In this document: positions 48,401 through 63,669 of the stretch, in pieces
Layout of the letters: every line of letters starts with the position of its first letter
Position numbering within the stretch: the first letter of the stretch is position 1
Assembly (NCBI GenBank): GCA_002269645.1
Contig: NIVC01000130.1
Span: 845,776-909,775 of the forward strand
From: Macrostomum lignano
Taxonomy: Eukaryota
Length of the DNA: 64,000 nt
Direction: 5' to 3'
Notes under the pieces: generated by a model
What the model was told of the DNA's origin: nothing
Seen by the model: only the letters and a program-made list of their open reading frames with translations
Database searches by the model: none
Program-made: the position numbers and the translations under genes

Positions 48401-49178
48401 ACTCTACTGAGATTAGGAGTGACTCTCTGAGGATTAGGAGTGACTTTGATGAGGATTAGAAGTGACTTTGATGAGGATTAGAAGTGAAGGAGTGACTGTG
48501 ATGAGGATTAGGAGTGAAGGAGTGACTGTGATGAGGATTAGGAGTGAAGGAGTGACTGTGATGAGGATTAGGAGTGAAGGAGTGACTGTGATGAGGATTA
48601 GGAGTGACTGTGATGAGGATTAGGAGTGACTGTGATGAGGATTAGGAGTGACTGTGATGAGGATTAGGAGTGACTCTCTGATGATTAGAAGTGACTCTCT
48701 GAGGGTTAGGAGTGACTCGGTTAAACCTGCCGCCTCCGCAGGCGTCTCCATGGACACGGACATCGACATGCTGGCCAGCATGACCGAAGATGAGCAAATC
48801 GCGATGGCACTGCGCATGTCCCTCCAACCCGAGCTTGGCGCCGAGACCCCGGCGCCAACTGCCAGTGCCGCGGCCGCCGCTGCGGGCGGCGCCGGCGCCG
48901 CTTCTGGCGCCGCTTCTGGCTCGTCTAGCGAAGGCCGCCTCGATCCGCCTAGCAAGAAAATCAAAGTCGACCCGTCCGAAGATCTCAAATCCGGCTCGGC
49001 AGCCGCCGATGACGACGAGGCCCTCGAGGACCCGGAATTCCTGGAAAGCGTGCTCCAAGGCCTGCCGGGCGTGGACCCGAAATCCGCCGAAGTTCAAGCC
49101 GCCCTGCGCAATAGGAAGCGCGACAAAGACGGCGGCAATGAGGGCGGCAGCGGCGGCGGCGGCAGCGGAGCAGCTTGA
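45499..49178 (+). CDS. PSMD4: 26S proteasome non-ATPase regulatory subunit 4 (Rpn10/S5a), 426 aa
   Basis: Exons 45499-45639, 45821-46039, 46909-47094, 47914-48211, 48742-49178 (1281 nt, in frame). vWA start [21 protein letters not shown]; RIVAFVGSP; UIMs [16 protein letters not shown] and [12 protein letters not shown]; C-terminal [17 protein letters not shown]. Confidence 0.97.
46065..46870. repeat. 30-bp intronic minisatellite GATAGTTATCCCAATTAGGGATATTGTATT
   Basis: Directly visible; unit contains the TATCCC-AATTA-GGGATA inverted repeat. Confidence 0.97.
47140..47900. repeat. Intronic 23+23 bp dimeric minisatellite with GAGAATC(G/A)CCC core
   Basis: CTCTGACTCTCACGAGAATCACC / CTCTGAATCTAACGAGAATCGCC alternate. 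Confidence 0.93.
48335..48720. repeat. Intronic repeat GAGGATTAGGAGTGAC...
   Basis: Directly visible. Confidence 0.9.
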
Positions 49179-49317
49179 TTCATTAATTTTATTACCTGCT
49201 TTATTAATCCTTACCTATTACTGTCTGACTAAAAACTCGTTGGTTTGTTTTCGGCTCTTATTAATTAACTGCGCGCCTCTTTTGTTATTCTTAGGAGAAA
49301 CTATTAAGATATGGCTA

Positions 49318-49700
49318 CCTAGCAACGGGAGTGTTTACCTTGGATACCGGTAGTTTTGTGGATTTTCCGTGTAGCTTAAATACTCTGCATAGCAACGGTG
49401 TGTTTACCTTGGATACCGGTAGTTTCGTGGATTTTCCGTGTAGCTTAAATACTCTGCATAGCAACGGGTGTGTTTACCTTGGATACCGGTAGTTTCGTGG
49501 ATTTTCCGTGTAGCTTAAATACTCTGCATAGCAACGGGTGTGTTTACCTTGGATAACGGCAGTTTTTCGGATTTTCCGTGTAGCTTAAATACTCTGCATA
49601 GCAACGGGTGTGTTTACCTTGGATACCGGTAGTTTCGTGGATTTTCCGTGTAGCTTAAATACTCTGCATAGCAACGGGTGTGTTTACCTTGGATACCGCT
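49318..49700. repeat. 70-bp tandem repeat downstream of PSMD4
   Basis: GCAACGGGTGTGTTTACCTTGGATACCGGTAGTTTCGTGGATTTTCCGTGTAGCTTAAATACTCTGCATA, ~5 copies. Confidence 0.95.
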
Positions 49701-50699
49701 ACCTATAGTGAACAGAAAATTGCTTCCTTATCTACCGCCCTACCATAACTACGCGACTTAAGTTGCCTTGGGTACTAACGACTCCTGTGTACTTTTATAT
49801 TTTCAGCAAAGCTATGTACTATTAAATCTATTCAAAAGTTTGTCAATACTTGTACGATCTATTTGCAACCGTAGTAAAGCGAACACCACTATAATAAAAG
49901 TTTATATTTTCCTTTATTCCGCTCCAATTCGGCTTGTCTAAACTACTTCAAGTAGCACTGCATGAATATGACTATTTAATTTGCTAATAAGGAATCAAAT
50001 TGGCAATTGGCATTTTTTCTGCAAAAAAGCAAATAAAATTTAAAGTGCGTACTAATACGATCATTTAGCTTTGTCACCTCTTTTCCCCAAGTCTTTTAAC
50101 TTCAGCAAAAAAGTTTAAATAATACTAAACAATGGGAATATCTGCCGTCTTGCGCTTCATATGCTGTTGCTGCTAAAAGAAGACAAATTTTGCCTGGCCT
50201 GAAAGGCATCAATTGTTTGACTTTGTTTTCGTGTTTTCTTTAATAAAACTGACCCAACGAAACATGCCAAGTGGACTACTCGCGAAAACCAGATGAAGCC
50301 TTCATTTATTGATTCGTCCTTGAAATGCAGATCATTTGTAATCTTGATCGCATGCTCGTCTCAGAATTAGCACGGCCCAAGAGTCCAAAATCCAGACCAG
50401 ACAATGTGCCTTAGTCACCTGATGATGCTGGCAGCCTCAGGGCAGACCACAGATATTATAGTAATCTACAGACAGACAGACATCAAGAGAGTTGAGTGAG
50501 AATTACAGTATGTAATGGAATTCTTCGCTTCTCTCCAAGAGTCGCAGTAAATACTGGTATAAAGCCTGTTTCTTTCATTATTGTCAGCACGCCTCAGACA
50601 GGATTCTGTGAGCGTCTTAAGGTCGTTATTTGACGGCGAATGTACATATGAAATGTACGCAACCCTAGAGAGAGAGAGTGGGGAGGGTGTTAAATTCTG

Positions 50700-50935
50700 G
50701 CACTCCAATTTAAAGACTTTCTAGTGGAAAATTCCACTCCAATAGAACCTTGTGTGTCCGTTTACTTATTGGCTACAATAATCACTCAACCCCAAAGCGC
50801 CACCCTCCCCTATCCCCTACTAGCTCGACCCCCTCCAACCCCCCCTCTATAAATTATCGGACGAAAGCGCAGTTGAGGCTTCGCCTGCCTTCTTTTTTGA
50901 CACATTTTTAAATGGAGTCAATTCTATGTAAGTTT
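50700..50935 (+). promoter_or_regulatory. Candidate terminal promoter of the element (CCAAT x3, TATAAAT at 50848) and splice donor GTAAGT at 50928
   Basis: CCAAT at 50705 and ~50739, ATTGG at ~50769, TATAAAT 50848-50854, short ATG exon 50912-50927. Confidence 0.5.
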
Positions 50936-51353
50936 AACAATTTGGTTGTTATTGTTGCTTATCTGATGATATTCTTGTTTGTGCTGTTTTGGTAATCAGT
51001 GCAGTGGCTGTAAAATTACTAATTAGTGTAAGTAGTATGGGATAACAGAACTCTGCCGCAGGAATTTCCGTGGAAAAGCCATGGGCCCTAGTGAGTGAAC
51101 ATACGGGCCCATGTAAATCCATTGAGCGACTCTGCCGCAGGGAAAGCCATGGAAATTCCATGGGGGGCACATCGGGTGGGCATGGGGGCCCGGTGAGATA
51201 ACAAAGCGCATGCTGGTATATGTACTGAAGGAAACTCATTATTGCACCCACCCCACTCCGCCTAGAAAGTATATATAAGATGGGCGATTTTTTGAGGTTG
51301 GCTTCATGACGAAAGGAATTTTTGTGCATCCTTCTTAAAGAAACATATCATTA

Positions 51354-52082: not shown

Positions 52083-52302
52083 TAACTTTTTAAGTGACTA
52101 TGCGTGGACATTGCTATGCCATCTGTATTGATGTCTAACAGTTCTATTTATCCAGCTTTTTCAGCTTATTCATTAATGTCCTATTAAATGAGCTCGTTTA
52201 AAATTAAAAATAAAATAAAATAAGCATCTCTCTCTATAGTTATGCTAGTTTACTGGTGAACTTAAGAATGCGAAATGAGTTTAATTTTTTCTCTAATTAA
52301 AA

Positions 52303-53370
52303 ATGGAAAAGATTTACTTTAACCCTGAGCAGCCAGCAAGCTTTTCTGGCTGCAATAAATTTATTAATGAAGTTCGCACGCAGGGTATCCGAGTGAGTGA
52401 AAAAGCTGCGAAAAACTGGCTTAACGATCAGACAGTCTACACATTACATAAGCCAGCAAGGAGGAATTATCCGAGGGCCCCAATCATAGTTCGAAGTATT
52501 GATGACCAATGGGAGTTGGATCTGGTGGAGATGATTCCTTTTTCCAAGTATAATAACGGCTACAGGTATATTCTAACATGCATTGATGTGCTGTCCAAGT
52601 ACGGATGGGCGAGGGCATTAAAGAACAAGTCTTCTATTGAAGTGAAGTCGGCATTCGAGAGCATATTAAGAAGTTCAAAGCGGCAACCGCGCACTGTTCG
52701 CACTGATCAGGGGAAAGAGTTTATCAACTCTACTTTTCGCCAATGCTGTATGGAAAGGGGAATCCTGGCATTCCCAACCAACAGTGAGCAGAAGGCGGCT
52801 GTCATTGAACGATGGAACCGAACTTTAAAGAGCAAAATGTGGCGCTACTTCACTCACAACAGCACTCTGCATTGGCTTGATGTGTTGCCTAAGCTAGTGA
52901 AGTCCTACAACAAAACATACCACAGAAGCATACGAATGGCCCCAACGAATGTCAGCCAGGAGAACGAGTCCGAGGTCTGGATGAGCCTATATGACGGGAA
53001 AGCGATTGAAACTGTGGAAAAGCTGGGAAAGCCAAAGTTCAGCGAAAACCAGTCTGTGCGGATTTCCAATGCACCCAGGCTTTTTAGAAAAGGGTACAAG
53101 GCCAACTGGAGCGAAGAAGTGTACACGGTGGTGTCCAGAGCTCCAAAGCATTATCCCTACATGTACAAGATAAAAGACATGAAAGGAGAAGAGATTCGTG
53201 GGCTTTTTCACGAGCATGAACTGCAGGCCGTTCCGGAGTCGCAGCGGCTGTATGTGATTGAAAAGATTTTGAAGACTGAGAAGCGGCAGGGAAAGATCCG
53301 ATATCTGGTCAAGTGGGCCGGCTACGACTCCACTGACTGGGTGGATGAGAAGGACTTAAGAAAAGTGTAA
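52303..53370 (+). CDS. Retroviral-like (rve) integrase with C-terminal chromodomain
   Basis: DDE triad in QWELDL, RTDQGKEF, IERWNRTLK; Maverick-type YFNPEQPASFSG start; chromodomain YVIEKIL...YLVKWAGYDSTDWV. Confidence 0.96.
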   Translation: MEKIYFNPEQPASFSGCNKFINEVRTQGIRVSEKAAKNWLNDQTVYTLHKPARRNYPRAPIIVRSIDDQWELDLVEMIPFSKYNNGYRYILTCIDVLSKYGWARALKNKSSIEVKSAFESILRSSKRQPRTVRTDQGKEFINSTFRQCCMERGILAFPTNSEQKAAVIERWNRTLKSKMWRYFTHNSTLHWLDVLPKLVKSYNKTYHRSIRMAPTNVSQENESEVWMSLYDGKAIETVEKLGKPKFSENQSVRISNAPRLFRKGYKANWSEEVYTVVSRAPKHYPYMYKIKDMKGEEIRGLFHEHELQAVPESQRLYVIEKILKTEKRQGKIRYLVKWAGYDSTDWVDEKDLRKV

Positions 53371-53382
53371 GATGCCGACATT

Positions 53383-54210
53383 GTGCAGCCATTCCCAATT
53401 ATGAGAAGCATCATCATTAACAGCGAAAATGCTGAAGGTACTCCTGCTGACTTTCATTTTCACCTGCCTTCACCTATTTACTTGGATCGAAATGTGGACT
53501 ATGAGGCAGGTCTGGCTGAAATCCATCTGCCTGCTGCATGGTTCAATGTTGACGAGCCTTACTGCTTCACTGTCTCAGATGGAAGAGAGCATGAGGCCTT
53601 GGTTCTTCAACCCGGACGCTTTGCTAGAGTGGAGGAGTTGGTGGAGCGCATGAATGAGCTGCTGGCCAACTCTGAGTCACTGTTCTTCGATGCAATGAGT
53701 GAGAGGGAGTCTGAAATGGAGGCTGATGAGTCTGGTTTAATGGGGCGGAGCAGCGCTAGAGATATTGGCATAAAGTTTGAGATCCAAGAATTGAGAACGG
53801 TAGTGCTCAACAACACGGCTCGAGCAGAATTATTCCTTCCATCAAGTAAAATTCTGCAGTGGCTGGGATTCGGAAATCAGTCCGTGAAAATTCCACCTGG
53901 GCGCCAAGTTTCCATGTACCACATTGGCTGCCCGCCCACCAATCTGATCAACGTGCATTGTAGCATTGTGGAGTCAACTAATTGCAACTGGAATTCCCTG
54001 CTGCGAACTGTGAACATGAATCCTGAAGCCGGATGGGGAAGCTACTGGAGCAAAGTGTTTAAGAAAACAGTTTTCTTCCCCATTCAGAAAACAAATTTTC
54101 TACACAGCATTCGAGTTCAACTGCGAGACATCTTTGGCTTCTCACTGACTGCTCATAGCGGCAGCCCTGTTCTGCTCACAATTCTGATACGTGAGAGACC
54201 AATGCAATGA
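53383..54210 (+). CDS. Minor capsid protein (penton-like, single jelly roll)
   Basis: Maverick mCP pattern: F..HLPSPIYL..YEAGLAEIHLP..WFNV; INVHCSIVE..LLRTV; FFPI..IRVQLRDIFG. Confidence 0.8.
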   Translation: MQPFPIMRSIIINSENAEGTPADFHFHLPSPIYLDRNVDYEAGLAEIHLPAAWFNVDEPYCFTVSDGREHEALVLQPGRFARVEELVERMNELLANSESLFFDAMSERESEMEADESGLMGRSSARDIGIKFEIQELRTVVLNNTARAELFLPSSKILQWLGFGNQSVKIPPGRQVSMYHIGCPPTNLINVHCSIVESTNCNWNSLLRTVNMNPEAGWGSYWSKVFKKTVFFPIQKTNFLHSIRVQLRDIFGFSLTAHSGSPVLLTILIRERPMQ

Positions 54211-54623
54211 ACTATCAGCAGCTGATTCGGCAGTATTCAGGGACTCGGACGGGAAATGAAAAGTCCATGCTCTATGGCTGCGGGAGTTTTCCTGGAATAA
54301 TGACTTACCAGCCTCCTCCAGCACCTTCCATAACATCATCATCATCATTAGCATCAAAGCCTGTACAAACCAGCAGTAGCAGCAGAAGCAATAGTACGAG
54401 TAATAGAAACATAGGAAATCAAGGACAGGCTAAAAAGGTGAATAAAAAGCAGGTGCGCATGAAGAAGAAGAAAAAAAGTGGCGAAGCACGCAAAACAAGC
54501 AAGGTCAGAACTAGCAAGCAACCTAAGAAAAGAACGACTAAAACACAGACCAAGAAAACAGGCAAAAGAAAACAAAAAGTGGGCAAAGAAACTGTGAAGC
54601 GTGTTCTGGACTCACTCTCATAG
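54207..54623 (+). CDS. Small, very basic protein between the capsid genes (candidate DNA-condensing core protein)
   Basis: 138 aa with a Lys/Arg-dense C-terminal half; ATG overlaps the mCP stop codon; function inferred. Confidence 0.65.
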   Translation: MNYQQLIRQYSGTRTGNEKSMLYGCGSFPGIMTYQPPPAPSITSSSSLASKPVQTSSSSRSNSTSNRNIGNQGQAKKVNKKQVRMKKKKKSGEARKTSKVRTSKQPKKRTTKTQTKKTGKRKQKVGKETVKRVLDSLS

Positions 54624-54625
54624 CA

Positions 54626-55909
54626 ATGGCTTACGGATTCAACCCGAGACTCGATTTGTTCAAGTCCCCCGTGCTGCAGACTGCTATTGAAAAATCCACG
54701 TATGTTGATATTCACCCCGTGAACTCTATTTCTACTAACTCACCAATTGAATTCGACTGCCATCCATCGGCTGATGAGTACACTGATCTGCTGAGCTCAT
54801 TCCTGTATATTCGCTGTCGCCTAGTCCGGCTTGGCGGGGCTTTGATGAGGGAGGAGGTTCGGAATGCCGATGGAGTTGTCACTGAGCGCAGAGACAGTGG
54901 GGTGCACCCAGAAAACTTTGTCCTATCTACGGCATTCTCAGATGTAATCGTGAGCATCAACCAGCGCATTGTCTCTGGCGGAGACCAGCTCTACCCCTAC
55001 CATGCCTACCTAAAAGCTCTCATGAGCTCATCCGATGCTCAGCAGTTAAATTTCTACCCCGCCGGATTCCTGGAACCCGAAACTGCTGCTGAGGGGCATG
55101 CCGAGAGACACAGGGAGTCCCGCTGGGTGGAGTATGCGGGACCGCTGCTCAGCGACATCTTCCAGTGTCCTGTTCTGCTGCTGAACAATTTACACCTGCA
55201 CATCAAGCTGATGCCCAGTGAAGCTGCATTTGCCATCCGAACCCCAGATGAGAACAACACAGCCTACCGAATTGAAATTTCCCATTGTATTCTGAACCTG
55301 CGCCGAGTCAAAGTGGCGCCTCACATCAGCCTAGCGCATGAGCAGGGACTTACCAATCAGAACGCACTTTACCCCATCGAGCGAACCGAAATGCAAAACT
55401 TCATTCTACCCCAGGGAATTCAGTCAAAAAACATTGAAGGATTCACCCATGGCAAACTGCCGAAGTTCGTTATGCTGGTCTTCGTGAACCACCGAGCCTT
55501 CAATGGCCATCACCATTCCAGCCCCTTCGAGTTCCAGAGCTTCAACCTCAGCCAGCTAGCACTAAAGAAAGGTGGTGAAGCCATGTGCCACGCTGCATTT
55601 GCACCTGAGAATAATTCATTCGTGAGAGAGTACTTGCACTACCTGAAAAGCTGTCAGTCTGCCAGCCCTACCAACTCGGTTCCGTGGGTCCCCTACCAGT
55701 TGTTCTCCAACGGCAACACAGCTTTCGCATTCGATCTCACGCCTGAGGGAGCGGCCCTGTGGTACGGACAGAAGGAGGGAAATTTGCGGCTGGAGATTCG
55801 CTTCCGACAGGCCCTGGAGGAGCCTGTATCTCTGATTGTTATGTGCCTGTATGACTCACTGATTGAGGTCACGAAGCACAGGGAGATTCTGCTAGATTTT
55901 CCATCCTAG
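54626..55909 (+). CDS. Major capsid protein (double jelly roll, hexon-like)
   Basis: LDLFKSPVLQTAIEKSTYVDIHP...PIEF...YTDLLSSFLYIRC, LYPYHAYL, GKLPKFVML, PFEFQSFNL, FAFDLTP, GNLRLEIRF: typical Maverick MCP motifs. Confidence 0.92.
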   Translation: MAYGFNPRLDLFKSPVLQTAIEKSTYVDIHPVNSISTNSPIEFDCHPSADEYTDLLSSFLYIRCRLVRLGGALMREEVRNADGVVTERRDSGVHPENFVLSTAFSDVIVSINQRIVSGGDQLYPYHAYLKALMSSSDAQQLNFYPAGFLEPETAAEGHAERHRESRWVEYAGPLLSDIFQCPVLLLNNLHLHIKLMPSEAAFAIRTPDENNTAYRIEISHCILNLRRVKVAPHISLAHEQGLTNQNALYPIERTEMQNFILPQGIQSKNIEGFTHGKLPKFVMLVFVNHRAFNGHHHSSPFEFQSFNLSQLALKKGGEAMCHAAFAPENNSFVREYLHYLKSCQSASPTNSVPWVPYQLFSNGNTAFAFDLTPEGAALWYGQKEGNLRLEIRFRQALEEPVSLIVMCLYDSLIEVTKHREILLDFPS

Positions 55910-55932
55910 GAGTACGCTGGCGCAACGCTAAT

Positions 55933-56451
55933 ATGGATGCTTTTCAACTGCTTAAACTGGCTAAAAGCTTTTTGCCACAAAATAACTATTTAATTATTGT
56001 CTTGAATTCAATAAATAAAACATCTTATGCTTTAAACTTTATTCAGCGAGCAACTCTCAAAAGAAATTTATCTCGATGTAGGTTTATTTTCTTTCTGCTT
56101 CAGTACGGCTCGTCCTTTGGTCACTGGGTGGTTTGTTATGCCAATAAGGAGAATTCCATAGAACTCTTTAACTCTCTGGGCTGGGACTCAAGCACTTTAG
56201 AGATCATTCACAGAGCACTGAAATCCTTTTGGTATTCTCCATTCTACTTACGTAGCAATGTGAATCGAATTCAGAGCTGCAACTCTGCTAAATGCGGTTT
56301 GTTCTGTCTCTTGTTTGCCTATCAAAAGTTTCGTTTCAAGCGCTCGTTTGAGTGGGTTCTGCGGCACCTCCATGCAAATCAGCAGAGCCACTTGAATGAA
56401 AGAATTCTGCAAAGGTTTGAGAGTTGCTTAAGAAAAAATAAATTTAATTAG
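55933..56451 (+). CDS. Adenain-like cysteine protease
   Basis: GHWV (His), ELFNSLG, IQ...CGLFC (Gln oxyanion, catalytic Cys). Confidence 0.88.
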   Translation: MDAFQLLKLAKSFLPQNNYLIIVLNSINKTSYALNFIQRATLKRNLSRCRFIFFLLQYGSSFGHWVVCYANKENSIELFNSLGWDSSTLEIIHRALKSFWYSPFYLRSNVNRIQSCNSAKCGLFCLLFAYQKFRFKRSFEWVLRHLHANQQSHLNERILQRFESCLRKNKFN

Positions 56452-56484: not shown

Positions 56485-57138
56485 ATGGAAACACGTGAGC
56501 GGATAAACTGTTATGATGTGCGCCTGCGACAAGGAAGCTGCATGATTGTCAGCGGGCCTACAAATGCAGGAAAGACAACCTTCGTGAAACATCTGATACA
56601 ATACAAGGATGTCATGTTTGATGTGAAGCCTGGGAGAGTTCTGTGGTACTACGGAATTTCACAAGCAGCACACTCTGAGCTCAGCAGTCTCGGCGTGCAC
56701 TTGCAGCAGGGATTTCCCAGCAGTATCGAGACCGCACTGAGACCCAATGACCTGGTTGTATTTGATGACCTGATTGAAGAAACTTCCAATTCTGCTGCAA
56801 TGCGAAATGTTTTCACTGGAATTGCCCATCATTTGCCCTGCTTTCTGGTTATGCTGACCCAAAATGTATTTTTTAAAGGGAAGGAGTTGCGAACAATGAG
56901 TCTGAATGCGATGTACTTTGTGATCATGAAGAACCCCAGAGACCAGCTGCAGATTGCGGCGCTGGGCAGGCAGTGTTTTGCTGAGAAGCCCGGCTTTCTG
57001 CTGTCAGTGTTCAAGCACGTGACATCGCACGGCAGGGGAGCCTACCTGCTCCTGGATTTTCACCCTTCCACCCCTGATGAGCTGCGGGTCCGGGCTCGAA
57101 TCCTGCCCAATCAGCGACCCCACCTGGTTTACACTTAA
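56485..57138 (+). CDS. Genome-packaging ATPase (A32/FtsK-HerA family)
   Basis: Walker A GPTNAGKT, Walker B LVVFDDL, HH..LTQN, RTMSLNA..MKNPRD. Confidence 0.95.
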   Translation: METRERINCYDVRLRQGSCMIVSGPTNAGKTTFVKHLIQYKDVMFDVKPGRVLWYYGISQAAHSELSSLGVHLQQGFPSSIETALRPNDLVVFDDLIEETSNSAAMRNVFTGIAHHLPCFLVMLTQNVFFKGKELRTMSLNAMYFVIMKNPRDQLQIAALGRQCFAEKPGFLLSVFKHVTSHGRGAYLLLDFHPSTPDELRVRARILPNQRPHLVYT

Positions 57139-57155
57139 GAATAACAGCCGAGATT

Positions 57156-57503
57156 TTGCCATTTGCTCTATATTCTGCAACACTAATGATAATGGAAACA
57201 TTCGACTCACATGAAAGTTTGTTTGATGTTCTCGCCTCACCGAAATATTCCATCAGCTTTAAACGTCTGTTGATCAGAGCGGGTCCAAAAGCAGTACATG
57301 AATTTCTCATTGAGGCCTGCTATAACCTATTGCAAAACACTCTGTCGTTCTCACTCACTGAAAAGGCAGCGCTAGTGAAGCAAAAGCAAATAATCCGCAA
57401 AATTTCTACACATAGAAGAGCTGCGGATCTGCTAAATACGGGTTTTATCAAAATTCTCTACATTCTAATAAAGCTAGTGAAGAAAAAGAAACAAAATGAA
57501 TAA
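57156..57503 (+). CDS. Conserved small Maverick protein with hydrophobic/cationic C-terminus
   Basis: LIEACYNLLQNTLSFSLTEKAALVKQKQIIRKI resembles the conserved post-ATPase small ORF of animal Mavericks; tail GFIKILYILIKLVKKKK. Confidence 0.65.
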   Translation: MPFALYSATLMIMETFDSHESLFDVLASPKYSISFKRLLIRAGPKAVHEFLIEACYNLLQNTLSFSLTEKAALVKQKQIIRKISTHRRAADLLNTGFIKILYILIKLVKKKKQNE

Positions 57504-58188
57504 GTTCTCAGAAATGGTTCTGATCCCCAAGTCAGAATACGACATGCTCACACAGAATTTGAAGCCAGTTGAGTCTGAACTCGACACTGCTGTGAGATAT
57601 GCGCAGAGGAAATGCAATGATATTTTGCTTGCCGAGGATTGCCCAGACGATGTGAAAGCTGCCATGTACCATGATGCGATGAAGAGTTTGCTGGCCAAGC
57701 GCAAGCGGACTGGAAAGGATGATGCGGTACCTGCGAGTGATGCAAAGATGCTGAAAACTGATATTGCACCAAGCAGCTGGGGGGAAAAGATCACCCAATC
57801 CGTGCCGCAGAAGTTTAAAGCGAGAGCCCGCAGTCTATGGGCCATCCTATCTGGCAATCCTTCTCTGATTCGGGTGTCCGAAAATGGCGAGGCGCAAATT
57901 TGTGGGAAGACAATACCCTCCTCAAACATCCTGGATTTGTTTCACAGTGCCGTGAGGGATTCGAAATGTGCCAGCGAGCCGGTGGGCTGGAGTGAGTTTG
58001 TCTCATTGCTCCAAGATAAAAAGCTTAACATCCCAGCTTCGGCCATAGGAAAGTCAGTTAGGCAGCTAATTTCTAAACCTGCTGTTTCTCCAGAGGCCGC
58101 CCCTGCTCATCATACAGTTAAAGGATTCGGGAGTGGGAGAGCTTGGCTACAGCTGAACAGGAAAAAACTATTTAAGAAGGGGAACTGA
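57496..58188 (+). CDS. Conserved Maverick protein of unknown function
   Basis: MVLIP start and SVPQKFKARARSL...SENGE..ICGKTIPSSNILDL resemble a widespread Maverick core ORF; ATG overlaps the preceding ORF. Confidence 0.65.
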   Translation: MNKFSEMVLIPKSEYDMLTQNLKPVESELDTAVRYAQRKCNDILLAEDCPDDVKAAMYHDAMKSLLAKRKRTGKDDAVPASDAKMLKTDIAPSSWGEKITQSVPQKFKARARSLWAILSGNPSLIRVSENGEAQICGKTIPSSNILDLFHSAVRDSKCASEPVGWSEFVSLLQDKKLNIPASAIGKSVRQLISKPAVSPEAAPAHHTVKGFGSGRAWLQLNRKKLFKKGN

Positions 58189-58228: not shown

Positions 58229-59074
58229 ATGAACTATATTGACTTCCAAGGCTTCCCACGCGAGAGATCGAGCAGAGATTTCGTTGTGAAGGAGCTAGCC
58301 ATTGCCCAAGTCCGGGCAGGCAGTTACCATATCACTCATCACGTGTACGCCTCTCCGTTCTCATGGGAGCGAATCTCACCTGAGATGCAGGTGCATTACA
58401 GAAAGCTCTCAAAGAATTTGCATCATTTCAAGTGGACAGATGGATCCCGATCGTACATGCATTTGGCAAATGACATTCTAAACATTGCTTACGGCCCCAC
58501 CTGGACAAGCGGGGTGAAAAAGTCCATCTTTCTGACTGAGCTGCTTGGCAGACAGGTGTACAACCTAGAGGATCTGGGATCACCTTTGATTCAAGCATCT
58601 GATACTGGTTGTGCAGTGAAAAATGTATTGCTCTACTACAACTGGCTGAAGCCAAAGTTCTGTATCAACTTAAGAAGCGAGGTGTGCCCGCACCACTCAA
58701 AGGCTCTCAAAGACAGCACCACTGACAGAAAGGACTCTCTAAATGAGTACACCTGCGACAGCCCTGCGAGTGACCAATCTGGTTGGCGGCGTGGATCTGA
58801 GGCTGGCTGGAGGCAGGGGTGCCCAGTTGCCTCTGCGGGAACTGGCTCTCAGCATGGCTCATGTCATCTATCGCCCCGTCTGGCCCCGAGTGCTCATCAA
58901 GAGGATGCGGAATCCCAGAGTGACTCTGTTGCTCTATCCGACTGGACAACTGAGTATCTGTGGCGCCCGGAGCTACTCGGCCTCAGTCAAGGCTGCCCGT
59001 CGCTTCGTGGCTATGCTGCATCGCAGAGTTCCGCCTCAACTGCTGCCTCGTCAATCCGTTTGTGTCCGAATTAA
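58229..59074 (+). CDS. DnaQ/DEDD-fold-like protein of the type seen in Mavericks; C-terminal ~110 codons overlap the next ORF
   Basis: IDFQGF...FVVKELA, HHFKWTDG...Y, SGVKKSIFL..LL...VYNLEDLGSP, CAVKNV..NW. Confidence 0.65.
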   Translation: MNYIDFQGFPRERSSRDFVVKELAIAQVRAGSYHITHHVYASPFSWERISPEMQVHYRKLSKNLHHFKWTDGSRSYMHLANDILNIAYGPTWTSGVKKSIFLTELLGRQVYNLEDLGSPLIQASDTGCAVKNVLLYYNWLKPKFCINLRSEVCPHHSKALKDSTTDRKDSLNEYTCDSPASDQSGWRRGSEAGWRQGCPVASAGTGSQHGSCHLSPRLAPSAHQEDAESQSDSVALSDWTTEYLWRPELLGLSQGCPSLRGYAASQSSASTAASSIRLCPN

Positions 59075-59309
59075 GACTATTACTGCTTATGGAAAAATAG
59101 ACTTGCCCAAGGCTCTATCACTAAGAAACCTCTGTGAAGTGCTACCGAATGCGAAATATGAACCTGAAAGTTTTACTGCTTTAGTTTGTCAGCTTCAATA
59201 CTGCAAGTGTACGCTTTTTCACAATGGCTCATTTGTGCTCAGCGGAGCAAAGTCTAAGCATATGCTACAATCAGACCGTTCCCTATTAGCTTGCTTGCTT
59301 TCAAACTGA
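58743..59309 (+). CDS. Divergent TATA-box-binding protein (TBP)-like protein, 188 aa
   Basis: Two TBP repeats: RVTNLVGGVDL...LRELAL...YRPVWPRVLIKRMRNPRVTLLLYPTGQLSICGARSYSASVKAARRF and YEPESFTALV...TLFHNGSFVLSGAKS (cf. QNIVSTVNL...[44 protein letters not shown]...IFVSGKVVLTGAK). Confidence 0.85.
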   Translation: MSTPATALRVTNLVGGVDLRLAGGRGAQLPLRELALSMAHVIYRPVWPRVLIKRMRNPRVTLLLYPTGQLSICGARSYSASVKAARRFVAMLHRRVPPQLLPRQSVCVRIKTITAYGKIDLPKALSLRNLCEVLPNAKYEPESFTALVCQLQYCKCTLFHNGSFVLSGAKSKHMLQSDRSLLACLLSN

Positions 59310-59790
59310 AATAAATAAAAAGAAAGAATAAATCGCGGCTTGTTTAATTAAAATATTCAAATTAATTCTCTCTCATGCACTAGCTTTTTTGTCTTCATTT
59401 TTAATTGCAATGAAAAACCAGTGGTGAACATCTTGTAGAGATAAACAAATAGCAAGCTAAAAGCAAATACGAGCAAGCAGATAAACCACTACAAAAATAG
59501 GAAAAAATAGTCCAAAAGCAGATGGAATATATTAAAACTTATAAAGCAATATCAGGATTCAAAAAACCAACCACAAAGTACAGGTAAAATTAGAAAAAAA
59601 TAAAACTCTCACATGCCATCACCGCAAACACCACCACCACCACTAACGAAGCATTGGTTTCATTATCATCATCGCGCAATTGTAAGTAAATATTGTGAAG
59701 CAAAAAATTGTTGCTAGCCTCAGCAGATGATCAAAGTTTTTATTGCATTTGGAAAAAATCCTATTTAGATTAGCGGTTAACCTTTATTCA
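59310..59790. terminator. Convergent polyadenylation region between the TBP-like ORF and PolB
   Basis: AATAAA at 59310 and 59314 on +; TTTATT (AATAAA on minus) at ~59738 and ~59783. Confidence 0.55.
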
Positions 59791-59869: not shown

Positions 59870-59957
59870 TCAAAGTAGTCGGCGCCGTTTTGATGATTTC
59901 TGCTGCTGTTGCTGCTGCTGTTGTTGTTGTTGTTGTTGTTGTTGTTGCTGCTGTTGC

Positions 59958-60026
<69 letters not shown>

Positions 60027-63000
60027 AGCAGCCGAATGTGACCAAATGGGAGACTATAGTTAGGGCTCAGCCAAGCGCGCTTGTCTTCCCAAATGCTTAA
60101 GGCACACTTCCGCTGCTGCAAAGTGTACAGTCGGTGATGGATGCTGGCAATACGATGAACAACGACAGAATGGCTGCAGAGCTCATTGAACACCCTTAGG
60201 TAGTCACTGTGAGCCAGCTCTTTCTTAACAATGCATCCTTGAACTCCTTTGGCCTTCTTCTTTTCCGCGGCTTGGCTACTCGCCTTGAATGAGTAAAGCT
60301 TCGGCCTTAGGAGCAGCCACTCCTCAAAGCGAGCACCGGCTGCTTCATCCTTAATGCAGCCAAGTCGCGCTTTTAAATCATTCGAGAATAGCGCGTGCTC
60401 TTGAGGATAGTTTGAAGTGTCGAGCAGCTGCTTCGACTTCAACAGCGGTAGAACTTTAGACTGAACGCTCATGTTGCTGATTGAGAGAAAGAAAGAATCG
60501 GTATCACCACCGCATAGCTTGATGACACCTCCATCGTTCTCTATCCAGGGCTTCAGTTTGTCGTAAAACAGCTCGTACATAATCATTTTCGAAAAGTCTA
60601 GGACGCATTGCCCGATAAAAATAGGCCGATCGAGCTTTAATTTTGTCTTTTGCAGTTCCAAAACGCTTAGTGAATCAGTAATTATGATAAAATTGGTAAT
60701 TGTCGGCTTGGCAAGCAGTACCTTTACCTTTTCCACGTTGGTGCAGACTCGAATATCACGCCGCTTTCGCACATTCTCCATAGTTTTGCCGAATAGCGCG
60801 TTATTCTTTAACTTGTAGAAATCCTTTTCGAAGTTGGTTTTCGCTGCAGCCCGCTTCTGGCTATTTTTCTCGACGTAGGCAGCAAAGAGAGGCTCTTGGT
60901 GAAACTCAATCATGCGATTGATGCGTCTAACCCGCATTCCATGGTTCAGGTAGAACGCCAAAATAGAGGAATGAACCACATAGGAAGGCTTATCGTGACA
61001 AGTGAGCATCAGCTTCTCTGTCGGATGATAGGTGGAGTTCTCCGTACCGACCTTTTCCCACAGCTGCTGCATGTATTCAGGAAATTCCCTGAAATTCGGG
61101 GCAGCCTTTTCCGGTGCAAATGGTAGGTCTTCGGTGGTTTCGTGAATCTCTGGGGGATACTCAAGGTCAACATCAAAGAGGTAGGCGAGTGGATCGGTTA
61201 GCTTGAGTCCTCGAATGCGATCTTCAGTCCACAAAAGCAGCTCATCATCGTCCAGCCAACGGAATCCTCCGACTGGTAAGTTCATAGTGAGCGCCTGTCC
61301 ATACAGGTTGTTTGCATCCACAGCAAGAAGCTCGGTGAGGCCAGCATGAATAGTAGGAGTGCCACCATCAACATCCTCATTGCTGTCAACACCAGTGCTG
61401 GCGCCCGCTGCTGAGGTAGCCTGCACTTTGTGGATGTTAACAAACGACATGCCGCCGCGAATGCCGCGCTCAAACAGCGAATACATCTGCGCATCTGTTA
61501 GCAGTTCAATCCCTGACTTGATGGATTTCAATGCCGAAGCGAATGATAGGCCTGGTGTCGAAATAAAATGGACTGGATCAAGGCCATCCTCTTGCATGCT
61601 GATCTTGCGAAAATTTTCAAAAATATCAGCCAACTGCCTGATGTCGAGCTCGAGGTAGCACAGCATGTACTCTTTTAGATTTGAAACCTGAAATTCTCGC
61701 CAGGCGCGTTGAGCATGCTCATAGTCAGAGTTGGTGCAGTGGCTCTTAGTCAGAGCATTGTAGAAGCTCTCTTGGCTGGGAAGCACGGCATCCTTCAGCA
61801 CGTCTGAATTTTTAAGATAGTCATACGGGAAAACTCCCTTGCTGAAAAGCACTTCGGATGATAGCAGTGGGAATCTGCTGCTGCGTAGGCGACTAGTGAT
61901 ACGACATTCAGCCTCTGGTAAATTTTTGATGAGCTGTGAGAGGCTGGCATTAAGAAATTGATTCGAATCAATGAACTGAATAGTAAAATTTAAAGGCTTG
62001 ATCTTGCCCTCACTCTCATACTCGCCGATTTTAAATTCGATTTTCATCGACAGAAACTGCTCTGGATTCAGAGGGATGACGGAGATTTTCCAACCCTCCA
62101 TCAGACCCAAAGCGGATGACATCATGAGATGGAGATCGTACCCCTTGAAATTGTGGAACACGACGGGAAGGAAAGACCTCTTTAGTCTGGCCTTCATATT
62201 ACAATCAGCACACGCAGCTCCCCGAAATTCTCCGCTGAGGTGGTCGTGATCCCAATGTTTATTGGACCCTTCCGTGAATTCGCTTCTACAATAGCAGCAA
62301 GCTGTGGCTTCTCTGAACTGTCGCCCTGCCATCTCTGTTCTTATCGCTGCTTGTCGACTGAACTCCGTGTTCCAGCCGTAAACTTCACGAGCGAGCTTCT
62401 CCAGCGATTGCAGGAAATCGGAAATGCACTTATTAGGATCGTCGCTGACAAAAGTGCTCACTTTATCATCCGCTCCTCTGGGCGCTAGACCAGTCATCCC
62501 TTCTCTGTGCAGCACGATGTAGCCAGCAGCAACAGCAATGTGCTCAGTTAACTTCTTCGTTGCTATACCAGCAATCGAATCTTCTTGGCATGGAGCATTC
62601 AATGCTTCGAAGTCGGCGTAAACAACAAATGGCGGACTAATTGTTTTTTCCCATGATGAGAATCGGAGAATATTATTCCTTTCATCTGGCAACTCTTCCT
62701 TGACGTTGATCACTCCAGGTTGACAAGGAGCTCGGCTGTGTTCTTCAAAGGCTGCATCACTATGAAAGGGCAGCAAGCAGCGCTCACACCACTTCCGCCG
62801 ATGCAGAGCTGCCTTGCTATTAAGAAGCCTGTTGATGCTTGAAACAGCACACCAATGACCCGAGGCCTCGTCTTCTGATGGTGGAATAAATAAGAGTAGA
62901 ACAACTTCTCGATCTTTAATTGTAGCTGCAGTAGGCAAGCGGAGGACTTGAGCGCTCTCTTTCTCCCAGATGAAAACCGTGAAGCAAAGTCTCGGGTTCA

Positions 63001-63669
63001 GTCTCTCAACAATGGAAAGGTCGGTGACATTGATTGGCAAGTCAATTCCACTCATGTTAAGTTCATCCAGCCAGTCAGTGTAGGAAGACTCGCGTTGCGC
63101 TGATTTCTTTATTTTGTTGTCTTCCTTGTGCAGAAAAGCAAGGCATGCGTAAAGAAAGCAATTTACACCATTGCTTGGAGGACAAATAACCGCCTTCTTC
63201 CGAAGAAGTGGAGTCGGTAGAATAAATTCCGCAGCATGCCCCGTGTAGTAGGAAACTCGTTCGACGAGAGCTGAGTAAAGTTCAAAAAAATTGATTTTTT
63301 CAATTATCCAGCCACTACCGTTGGTGTTGTAGACATCGACTTTGCGCTCCAGCTCTGTAAACTGCTGTCTCCACCAATCATCAAACTCCTGTATATCTAC
63401 CACCAATCCGAGTTGTGTGCTCATCCATTTATCCTCCCCCTTGACAGCTTCTGACGCCTGCACTCTGACCATGCGCAAATTCAGTTTGATCTGAGCTTTA
63501 ACAGAGCAATTATCCGAAGAGTCGAAGCGAATTTCAAGACACTGCTGCACTGCGATTTTGCAGAAATCGAGAAACTCGAATGTTTCAGTGGCAGCTCCAG
63601 GTGTAAATCGATGAACTTGAAGAACATCTTCGTGAGCGCTGGTTTTTAACGCCAGGGTGAATGAAGGTC
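59870..63669 (-). CDS. Protein-primed family B DNA polymerase (5' exon/start codon not in window)
   Basis: ExoI VVYADFE; EndoVII-like insert CCYC...HWDHDHLSGEFRGAACADCN; motifs DANNLYG, KLKNNALFGK, GGDTDS, RPKLYS, KAKGV; C-terminal polyQ. Frame open without ATG to 63808; strong acceptor at 63670-63671. Confidence 0.97.

Follow-up and report, generated by a model that had tools for sequence, protein, structure and literature searches.

A TBP-like gene maintained by selection in Maverick elements of Macrostomum lignano, and a candidate promoter word

A stretch of 64,000 nucleotides from Macrostomum lignano (contig NIVC01000130.1, positions 845,776 to 909,775; hereafter called the window) contains, within a Maverick element, a gene at 58743-59309 that encodes a protein of the TBP fold and is maintained by selection. 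The TBP-like gene is real, selected and present in several families of Mavericks, and a private promoter is a candidate on the basis of sequence comparison. By analogy with the TBP mimics of herpesviruses, the product likely serves the late genes as a promoter factor specific to the element. Features of the element are listed in Table 1.

Table 1. Features of the Maverick element in the window, with positions counted from the first letter of the window.
Feature	Position	Strand	Evidence or remark
Element left end (AGTAGT...), where the terminal inverted repeat begins	51031..51182	+	
Canonical TATA TATATATAAG, 82-84 bp upstream of the PC4-like gene	51270..51279	+	
PC4-like ORF, 242 aa	51354..52082	+	Pfam PC4, E 8e-5, 22.5 bits, below the cut-off of 25
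CTTAAGAA box, 42 bp upstream of integrase	52261..52268	+	
Retroviral-type integrase with chromodomain	52303..53370	+	rve, 1.8e-12
CTTAAGAA box, 46 bp upstream of the minor-capsid-like gene, within the 3' end of integrase	53355..53362	+	
Minor-capsid-like ORF	53401..54210	+	no Pfam match
Lysine-rich core-like ORF, no box	54207..54623	+	
Major-capsid-like ORF, 427 aa, no box	54626..55909	+	no Pfam match
Adenain-like protease, no box	55933..56451	+	Peptidase_C5, 4e-5, above cut-off
CTTAAGAA box, 58 bp upstream of the ATPase	56427..56434	+	
P-loop ATPase	56485..57138	+	weak Pfam matches
CTTAAGAA box, 52 bp upstream of the 105-aa ORF	57134..57141	+	
105-aa ORF, conserved across family-A subfamilies	57186..57503	+	
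230-aa ORF, conserved in all three families (A, B, C); the window copy has no box	57496..58188	+	
TTTAAGAA box, 58 bp upstream of the 281-aa ORF	58171..58178	+	TATAAGAA or CATAAGAA in other subfamilies
281-aa ORF: conserved head of ~160 aa, then a tail that shares the DNA of TBP repeat 1 in the -1 frame	58229..59074	+	
CTTAAGAA box, 74 bp upstream of the TBP start, inside the 281-aa ORF	58669..58676	+	
TBP-like gene, 188 aa, two repeats	58743..59309	+	Pfam, PDB matches, host TBP alignment, AlphaFold
Three AATAAA polyadenylation-like signals	59310..59332	+	sequence
Protein-primed DNA polymerase B (pPolB), convergent with TBP	59870..63472	-	DNA_pol_B_2, 7e-14

The window element has the hallmarks of a Maverick/Polinton, namely pPolB together with a retroviral-type integrase, and an adenain-like protease above the Pfam cut-off. 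The contig stops before the right end of the element, and the window contains the left end only. A sister copy, G000:C754, spans about 16.5 kb and has a 674-bp terminal inverted repeat (TIR) at 99.85% with matching 6-bp flanks; the TIR is also long in C878 and is seen as a 134-bp inner match in C393, and none was found within the C114 stretch. The two capsid candidates have a size and place that fit jelly-roll capsids, with no Pfam match; the minor-capsid, core and major-capsid labels are our presumed assignments, and we likewise take the P-loop ATPase to be the packaging ATPase. The genes for the core, major capsid and protease (54207-56451) abut their upstream genes, with overlaps or gaps of 2-23 bp. 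The head of the 281-aa ORF, presumably DEDD-like, had as Atlas neighbours eukaryote clusters without a name at 0.95 and a Maelstrom cluster at 0.88, the latter a lead only. The pPolB frame ends in about 45 Gln codons (59870-60040), a length not seen in the tblastn alignments of other copies, which were low-complexity filtered. About 1.9 kb to the left of the element lies a host exon with a weak Pfam match to UIM (48700-49178), which we assume to belong to an Rpn10-like proteasome subunit, and a 70-bp tandem repeat (49258-49746) comes next after this exon. Two proposals of an earlier note on this DNA fared poorly. A TATA at 50848, named there as a region for binding assays, falls in host flank outside the left end. 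The transcription module of PC4-like and TBP-like proteins is weak, with the PC4 match below its cut-off and the PC4-like gene preceded by a canonical TATA and not by the box described below; we presume that single-strand-DNA binding in replication is an equally plausible role for this protein.

The TBP-like ORF is intact, as the earlier note had stated, with an ATG immediately 3' of a TAA, Maverick genes on both sides, and three AATAAA after its stop (at 59310, 59314 and 59327). Pfam PF00352 matched it in two stretches (E 1.3e-22; 79.8 bits, with the cut-off at 22.9), in agreement with the proposed alignment to both halves of the TBP saddle. A PDB sequence search returned TBP chains or TBP fusions in 35 of 39 matches, with a best E of 7.9e-17. 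The TBP fold, named earlier as a check, was predicted by AlphaFold from an input alignment of 91 sequences, cellular TBPs among them: the model is a saddle (pLDDT 96.2, pTM 0.87) that compares with solved TBPs at TM 0.76-0.84 among the listed structure matches. In this model the whole ORF is TBP core, with no N-terminal extension or Pol II-binding domain on it. A gap-free alignment with host TBP gave 26% identity, and identity to the host TRF2-like protein is 24%. The four intercalating Phe of canonical TBP are not all present; P48, Y65, F144 and F159 occupy these positions, and Pro and Tyr replace the N-repeat pair. The earlier reading of W, Y, F and F is upheld at the last three positions. 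Its first residue, W47, has no support from the alignment as an intercalator, being one residue off the place where Pro48 aligns. Canonical TBP has two symmetric minor-groove Asn, and the earlier statement that the first is kept and the second lost was borne out by N12 and T112. E140 and E142 align with YEPE of the host C-terminal stirrup, where acidic residues of TBP serve TFIIB. Across element proteins, the second stirrup Glu, the Y-P-x-G and E-x-F motifs, the last Phe and the C-repeat Phe pair are invariant (17/17), and Pro was read by eye at the first intercalating place in all 17, a column that MAFFT shifts between families. Helix H2 is basic and host-like in family A, acidic in family B and unrelated in family C.

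A search of the genome with the TBP-like gene yielded at least 151 matches, a lower bound with 150 scored out of 228 candidates. At least 94 among the 150 listed matches are near-full-length, stop-free family-A copies. Fifteen stretches were examined, and in 12 the family-A gene follows the 281-aa ORF or has Maverick surroundings according to tblastn, the truncated L040 and L041 excepted, in which the C-terminal half of TBP alone remains, beside the protease; the remaining stretches include the window's own contig end and L031 (family B). The gene has the same position in all 12 additional family-A stretches that contain it with its neighbours. For family A, dN/dS was 0.05-0.45 in repeat 1 (55/55 pairs of 11 sequences) and 0.06-0.31 in repeat 2 (41/55 pairs, with dS saturated in the other 14), values of a gene under purifying selection. 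Quick trees placed families A and B in one clade, with SH-aLRT of 98 and 96, apart from host TBP and TRF2; at 24% identity and in a separate clade of these trees, the element protein does not group with the host TRF2-like protein. Family C sits on a long branch of the same trees, and its joining A and B was not demonstrated. An AU test did not reject the placement of A and B with host TBP (p 0.10), which leaves some room for a host TBP paralogue that was captured recently and is decaying neutrally. Against this stand the low identity to both host proteins, the many intact listed copies with dN/dS well below 1, and the clade that the element TBPs form on their own. A recent capture confined to this one copy was among the refuting cases of the earlier note; the gene is in many copies, and recent host capture is excluded.

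That the gene is instead a by-product of an overlapping frame gains something from the overlap of the whole of repeat 1 with another open frame. The 281-aa ORF is open in the -1 frame across the first 106-110 TBP codons at 41/41 family-A loci with an intact start. In family B the overlap is 128-130 codons in 16 of 21 entries, 108 in one and 89 in two, and the frame is offset in two. Under synonymous resampling a stop-free overlap had P 0.006-0.02 in family A and 0.001 in family B, for an endpoint chosen post hoc. It is the overlapping frame, however, that lacks amino-acid constraint in families A and B: its omega is 0.7-4.9, and a conserved second protein was rejected at the amino-acid level on this value. 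Taken together, a decaying capture or a by-product frame is scarcely credible as the origin of the gene. Fused frames of the 281-aa ORF and TBP exist in some copies; with a box of its own, the TBP gene does not need a programmed frameshift fusion. Recombination accounts better for the fact that repeat 1 is the more conserved of the two. The window copy and G000:C393 are 93-99% identical up to 59038 and 58-78% beyond; the left arm of the window copy is 97.7% identical to C393, its right arm and polymerase come from another subfamily, the breakpoint lies at about 59040-59100, between the TBP repeats, and the polymerases are 53% identical. Subfamilies swap arms at the TBP repeat junction, in frame, and the resulting TBP proteins are chimeric yet intact.

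Family B (L031) is 36% identical to family A in TBP and 43-47% in capsid, with the TBP gene adjoining the same upstream ORF as in family A and a PC4-like gene adjacent. About 24 long stop-free TBP copies were found; pairs gave dN/dS 0.19-1.36 on 1-6 changes, these copies being too recent to judge. Family C was found by a profile search of eight other Maverick-bearing stretches (E 7e-6), and its TBP-like protein is about 21% identical. It had 72 matches in several subfamilies, and six frames, each neighbouring pPolB or what remains of it, scored E 1e-9 to 2e-16 against the TBP profile. One protein of this family, predicted from an alignment of element sequences only, folds as a TBP saddle (pLDDT 93.6, TM 0.62-0.78). 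No Pfam match was obtained for the family-C protein; such genes are invisible to Pfam and therefore probably under-counted. A P-loop ORF follows the TBP-like gene in family C (L148:5592-6251, L149:3719-4387, L150:5288-5905, L151:5440-6846), which we take to resemble a deoxynucleoside kinase, and the two share one reading frame in L151 and L152. Several of the TBP-like frames have a domain start without an ATG (L126:6243-6860, L147:6966-7520, L148:5863-6921, L149:3031-4062, L151:5440-6846). In L126, L148 and L149 the domain opens in frame straight after a pyrimidine tract ending in TTTCAG, which resembles a splice acceptor, and L150 has an in-frame ATG upstream of the domain. An AUG at the end of the flatworm spliced leader can provide a start codon (available text of PMC9851317); host trans-splicing may for this reason start the family-C protein, with cis-splicing as the alternative.

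Outside its own genome the element TBP clade consists of a few proteins from short contigs. These relatives (P0002-P0004, P0006, P0007, P0011, P0177 and P0178) are on contigs of 0.9-3.0 kb. The only relatives that carry a species name are two Macrostomum lignano proteins. Searches with the element alignment confirmed 0 of 15 candidates in IMG/VR and 0 of 68 in JGI metagenomes. Three other short, divergent TBP alignments gave 1, 0 and 5 IMG/VR loci, none of them Maverick-like by tblastn and ORF reading. Parts of element TBP are joined to long host proteins by splicing in the database gene models P0009, P0010 and P0012, which look like annotation chimeras over inserted elements.

A box of the form [CT][AT]TAAGAA was picked post hoc in a search of the regions upstream of 12 element ATGs. 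The gene block has seven on its sense strand, and six of these are at a distance of 42-74 bp from the ATG that follows; such zones make up 8.5% of the block (binomial P 2.5e-6, the motif having been chosen with the data in view). At most four boxes fell in the zone in 3000 synonymous resamplings, and two to three were retained in most of them because they are partly or wholly outside the resampled codons. Several boxes fall in coding sequence, as Leu-Arg-Lys/Ser. Among ten same-strand genes, the box precedes integrase, minor capsid, ATPase, the 105-aa ORF, the 281-aa ORF and TBP; the core, major capsid, protease and 230-aa ORF have none. In a subfamily of 52-85% protein identity the box repeats, with 6/8 near an ATG (P 4.8e-5), and it is found upstream of TBP in 16/16 distinct family-A upstream sequences from 56 loci. 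The box upstream of the minor-capsid-like gene (53355..53362) is retained in family B too. Upstream of TBP, family B has TATAAAAG in 9/10 distinct sequences, which is near canonical, and CTATAAGAA was seen by eye upstream of two further genes; the box statements for families B and F, and in part those for E, rest on reading upstream sequences. The word in family C is TAAGCA, with 5/10 near an ATG (P 6.8e-4) and 3/5 (P 8.6e-3) in two counts.

Families D and E gave no TBP match in stretches of 14-20 kb, in which the elements are partly covered. Family D had no [CT][AT]TAAGAA, and TAAG[AC]A was near a start in 1/7 (P 0.37); in family E, with six of eight genes examined, none had a box. The Mavericks without a TBP match (L118-L125, L130-L133; G000:C3178, C273, C2068, C1511, C2506 and C67) form a distant group, and because of this distance the contrast in boxes rests on few independent lineages. 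Their genes mostly start with AAAATG after an AT-rich run (6/8 genes in D, 5/6 genes examined in E), a pattern reminiscent of poxvirus late starts. These Mavericks may rely on a different transcription system, perhaps that of a helper virus. It is quite possible, if short of probable, that the TBP and the promoter word of each family diverged together (TAAGAA in A, near canonical in B, TAAGCA in C), as parts of a self-encoded late-gene switch on host Pol II. Families sharing this genome would in that case have promoter codes that are partly orthogonal, and their proteins would be natural altered-specificity TBPs of 16-kb endogenous viruses, arrived at independently of herpesviruses.

The boxes could instead be read by host TBP, with the element protein binding element DNA in another way, for example to repress its early canonical-TATA promoters, or to bend the termini during replication or packaging. 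Wild-type TBP has room for a G at position 6 of the box (available text of PMC1636458) and structure matches included TBP on the T(-30) and G(-26) TATA variants, so that host TBP might read the box; each single deviation in it is tolerated by host TBP, the family-B boxes are near canonical, and KSHV ORF24 acts also at the replication origin, according to the available part of PMC6541308. We nevertheless consider this unlikely. The box word tracks the TBP clade (TAAGAA versus TAAGCA) and is missing from the families that gave no TBP match, the element proteins share an invariant stirrup Glu, and all five plus-strand CTTAAGA sites of the window element precede genes, with none in the left end. 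The idea in the earlier note of an altered-specificity factor for the element's own promoters gains indirect backing, while staying putative, from a positioned and conserved box that differs by TBP family and is missing in the sampled families that gave no TBP match.

As the promoter factor that we favour, the element TBP would bind its own TATA-like box, [CT][AT]TAAGAA, and, by bringing in host TFIIB and RNA polymerase II, switch on the genes for the integrase, the virion and packaging. Early genes with a canonical TATA (the PC4-like gene and, in family B, the TBP gene itself) would be read by host TBP. In cellular TBP the 5' half of the box is contacted by the C-terminal repeat, and two Phe pairs kink the DNA (PMC3142196 and PMC1636458, available text). 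The C-terminal repeat of the element protein, in which F144 and F159 are kept, would sit on the 5' half in the same way, and the remodelled N-terminal repeat, with Pro and Tyr for two Phe, would read the altered 3' half; the 3' halves of the family words differ (AGAA, AAAG and AGCA). The kept stirrup glutamates may dock host TFIIB, a partner proposed because the elements encode none: a Pfam scan detected neither TFIIB nor RNA polymerase among 12 element ORFs, and the genome has 15 TFIIB-family matches on 7 contigs, none multi-copy. In family A the box upstream of the TBP gene would provide positive feedback. The core, major capsid, protease and 230-aa ORF stand directly behind boxed genes, and shared transcripts are therefore proposed; operons and trans-splicing are both known in the host group (PMC8629364, available text). 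The outcome would be an early/late cascade resembling that of beta- and gamma-herpesviruses. Several findings count against a promoter factor, as the major capsid gene has no box, the family-B box is near canonical despite a more derived protein, and the protein has lost one Asn and one Phe, a trait of paralogues such as TLF that do not bind TATA. Sequencing runs contribute little: the stretch is present in 20 of the 24 listed, and none of these is recorded as RNA. Four runs guessed to be RNA, from four studies, have low-depth contigs over the element including its non-coding parts, and no splice joint or leader-like loose end occurs at the TBP start among the guessed-RNA rows listed; both observations are uninformative either way.

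The same losses would suit a TLF-like decoy that does not bind DNA and sequesters host TFIIA or TFIIB, damping host (defence) transcription. TLF represses through sequestration of TFIIA, as the available text of PMC3142196 describes, and helix H2 of family A is basic and resembles that of the host. A decoy is nonetheless quite improbable, since the DNA-facing Phe pair of the C-repeat and the Tyr are invariant across families that are about 20% identical, H2 is not conserved, and the family-specific boxes would be left unexplained. With the promoter factor as the preferred reading, the candidate 8-bp box opens the timing of capsid and integrase genes in animal Mavericks, and with it the question of viral self-sufficiency, to binding and reporter assays. 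The three families would serve as natural pairs of TBP and box for the study of TATA re-specification.

The closest known proteins are cellular and archaeal TBP and TRF2/TLF (PF00352), which share with the element protein the saddle (TM about 0.8), the first Asn, the C-repeat Phe pair and the YEPE stirrup. Cellular TBP differs at 24-26% identity and in the N-repeat Phe, second Asn and N-terminal extension that the element protein lacks; the element gene is also mobile-borne, in well over 100 copies versus three TBP and three TRF2-like host loci. NCLDVs encode their own RNA polymerase. Their TBP homologues, for example ASFV pB263R (PMC5825884), are likewise virus-encoded and divergent, with some intercalating Phe lost in the cases described in the available text, and TBP-fold matches were present in BFVD; those structural matches are at most 20% identical to the element protein, and no IMG/VR relative was confirmed with the element alignment. 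Novelty, which the earlier note had left to a search, is qualified by Starrett 2021, where the Fig. 5 legend lists 'TBP' for an element with an adintovirus-like PolB (PMC8502044; preprint 10.1101/697771). In the available text of that paper this is a single legend entry without analysis, and Macrostomum and PC4 are absent from the main text. Beyond this label, no paper analysing a Maverick TBP was found in a literature search that was thin on subscription papers and Repbase reports. The nearest parallel is with the TBP mimics of beta- and gamma-herpesviruses (KSHV ORF24, EBV BcRF1 and HCMV UL87) and their TATT late promoters (PMC6541308, available text). Common to both systems are a nuclear DNA virus-like genome and a TBP-like protein, with a modified TATA in front of structural genes; the use of host Pol II, and the link between protein and box, are what we propose for the Mavericks. 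KSHV ORF24 has its own N-terminal Pol II-binding domain and acts in a six-protein complex, in the same available text, whereas the Maverick protein is a bare 188-aa core, which sequence comparison still identifies as TBP, in an element of roughly 16.5 kb. If the proposed role is correct, these Mavericks would provide a second case, beside the beta- and gamma-herpesviruses, of a TBP-like factor that redirects host Pol II, and would do so in minimal form.
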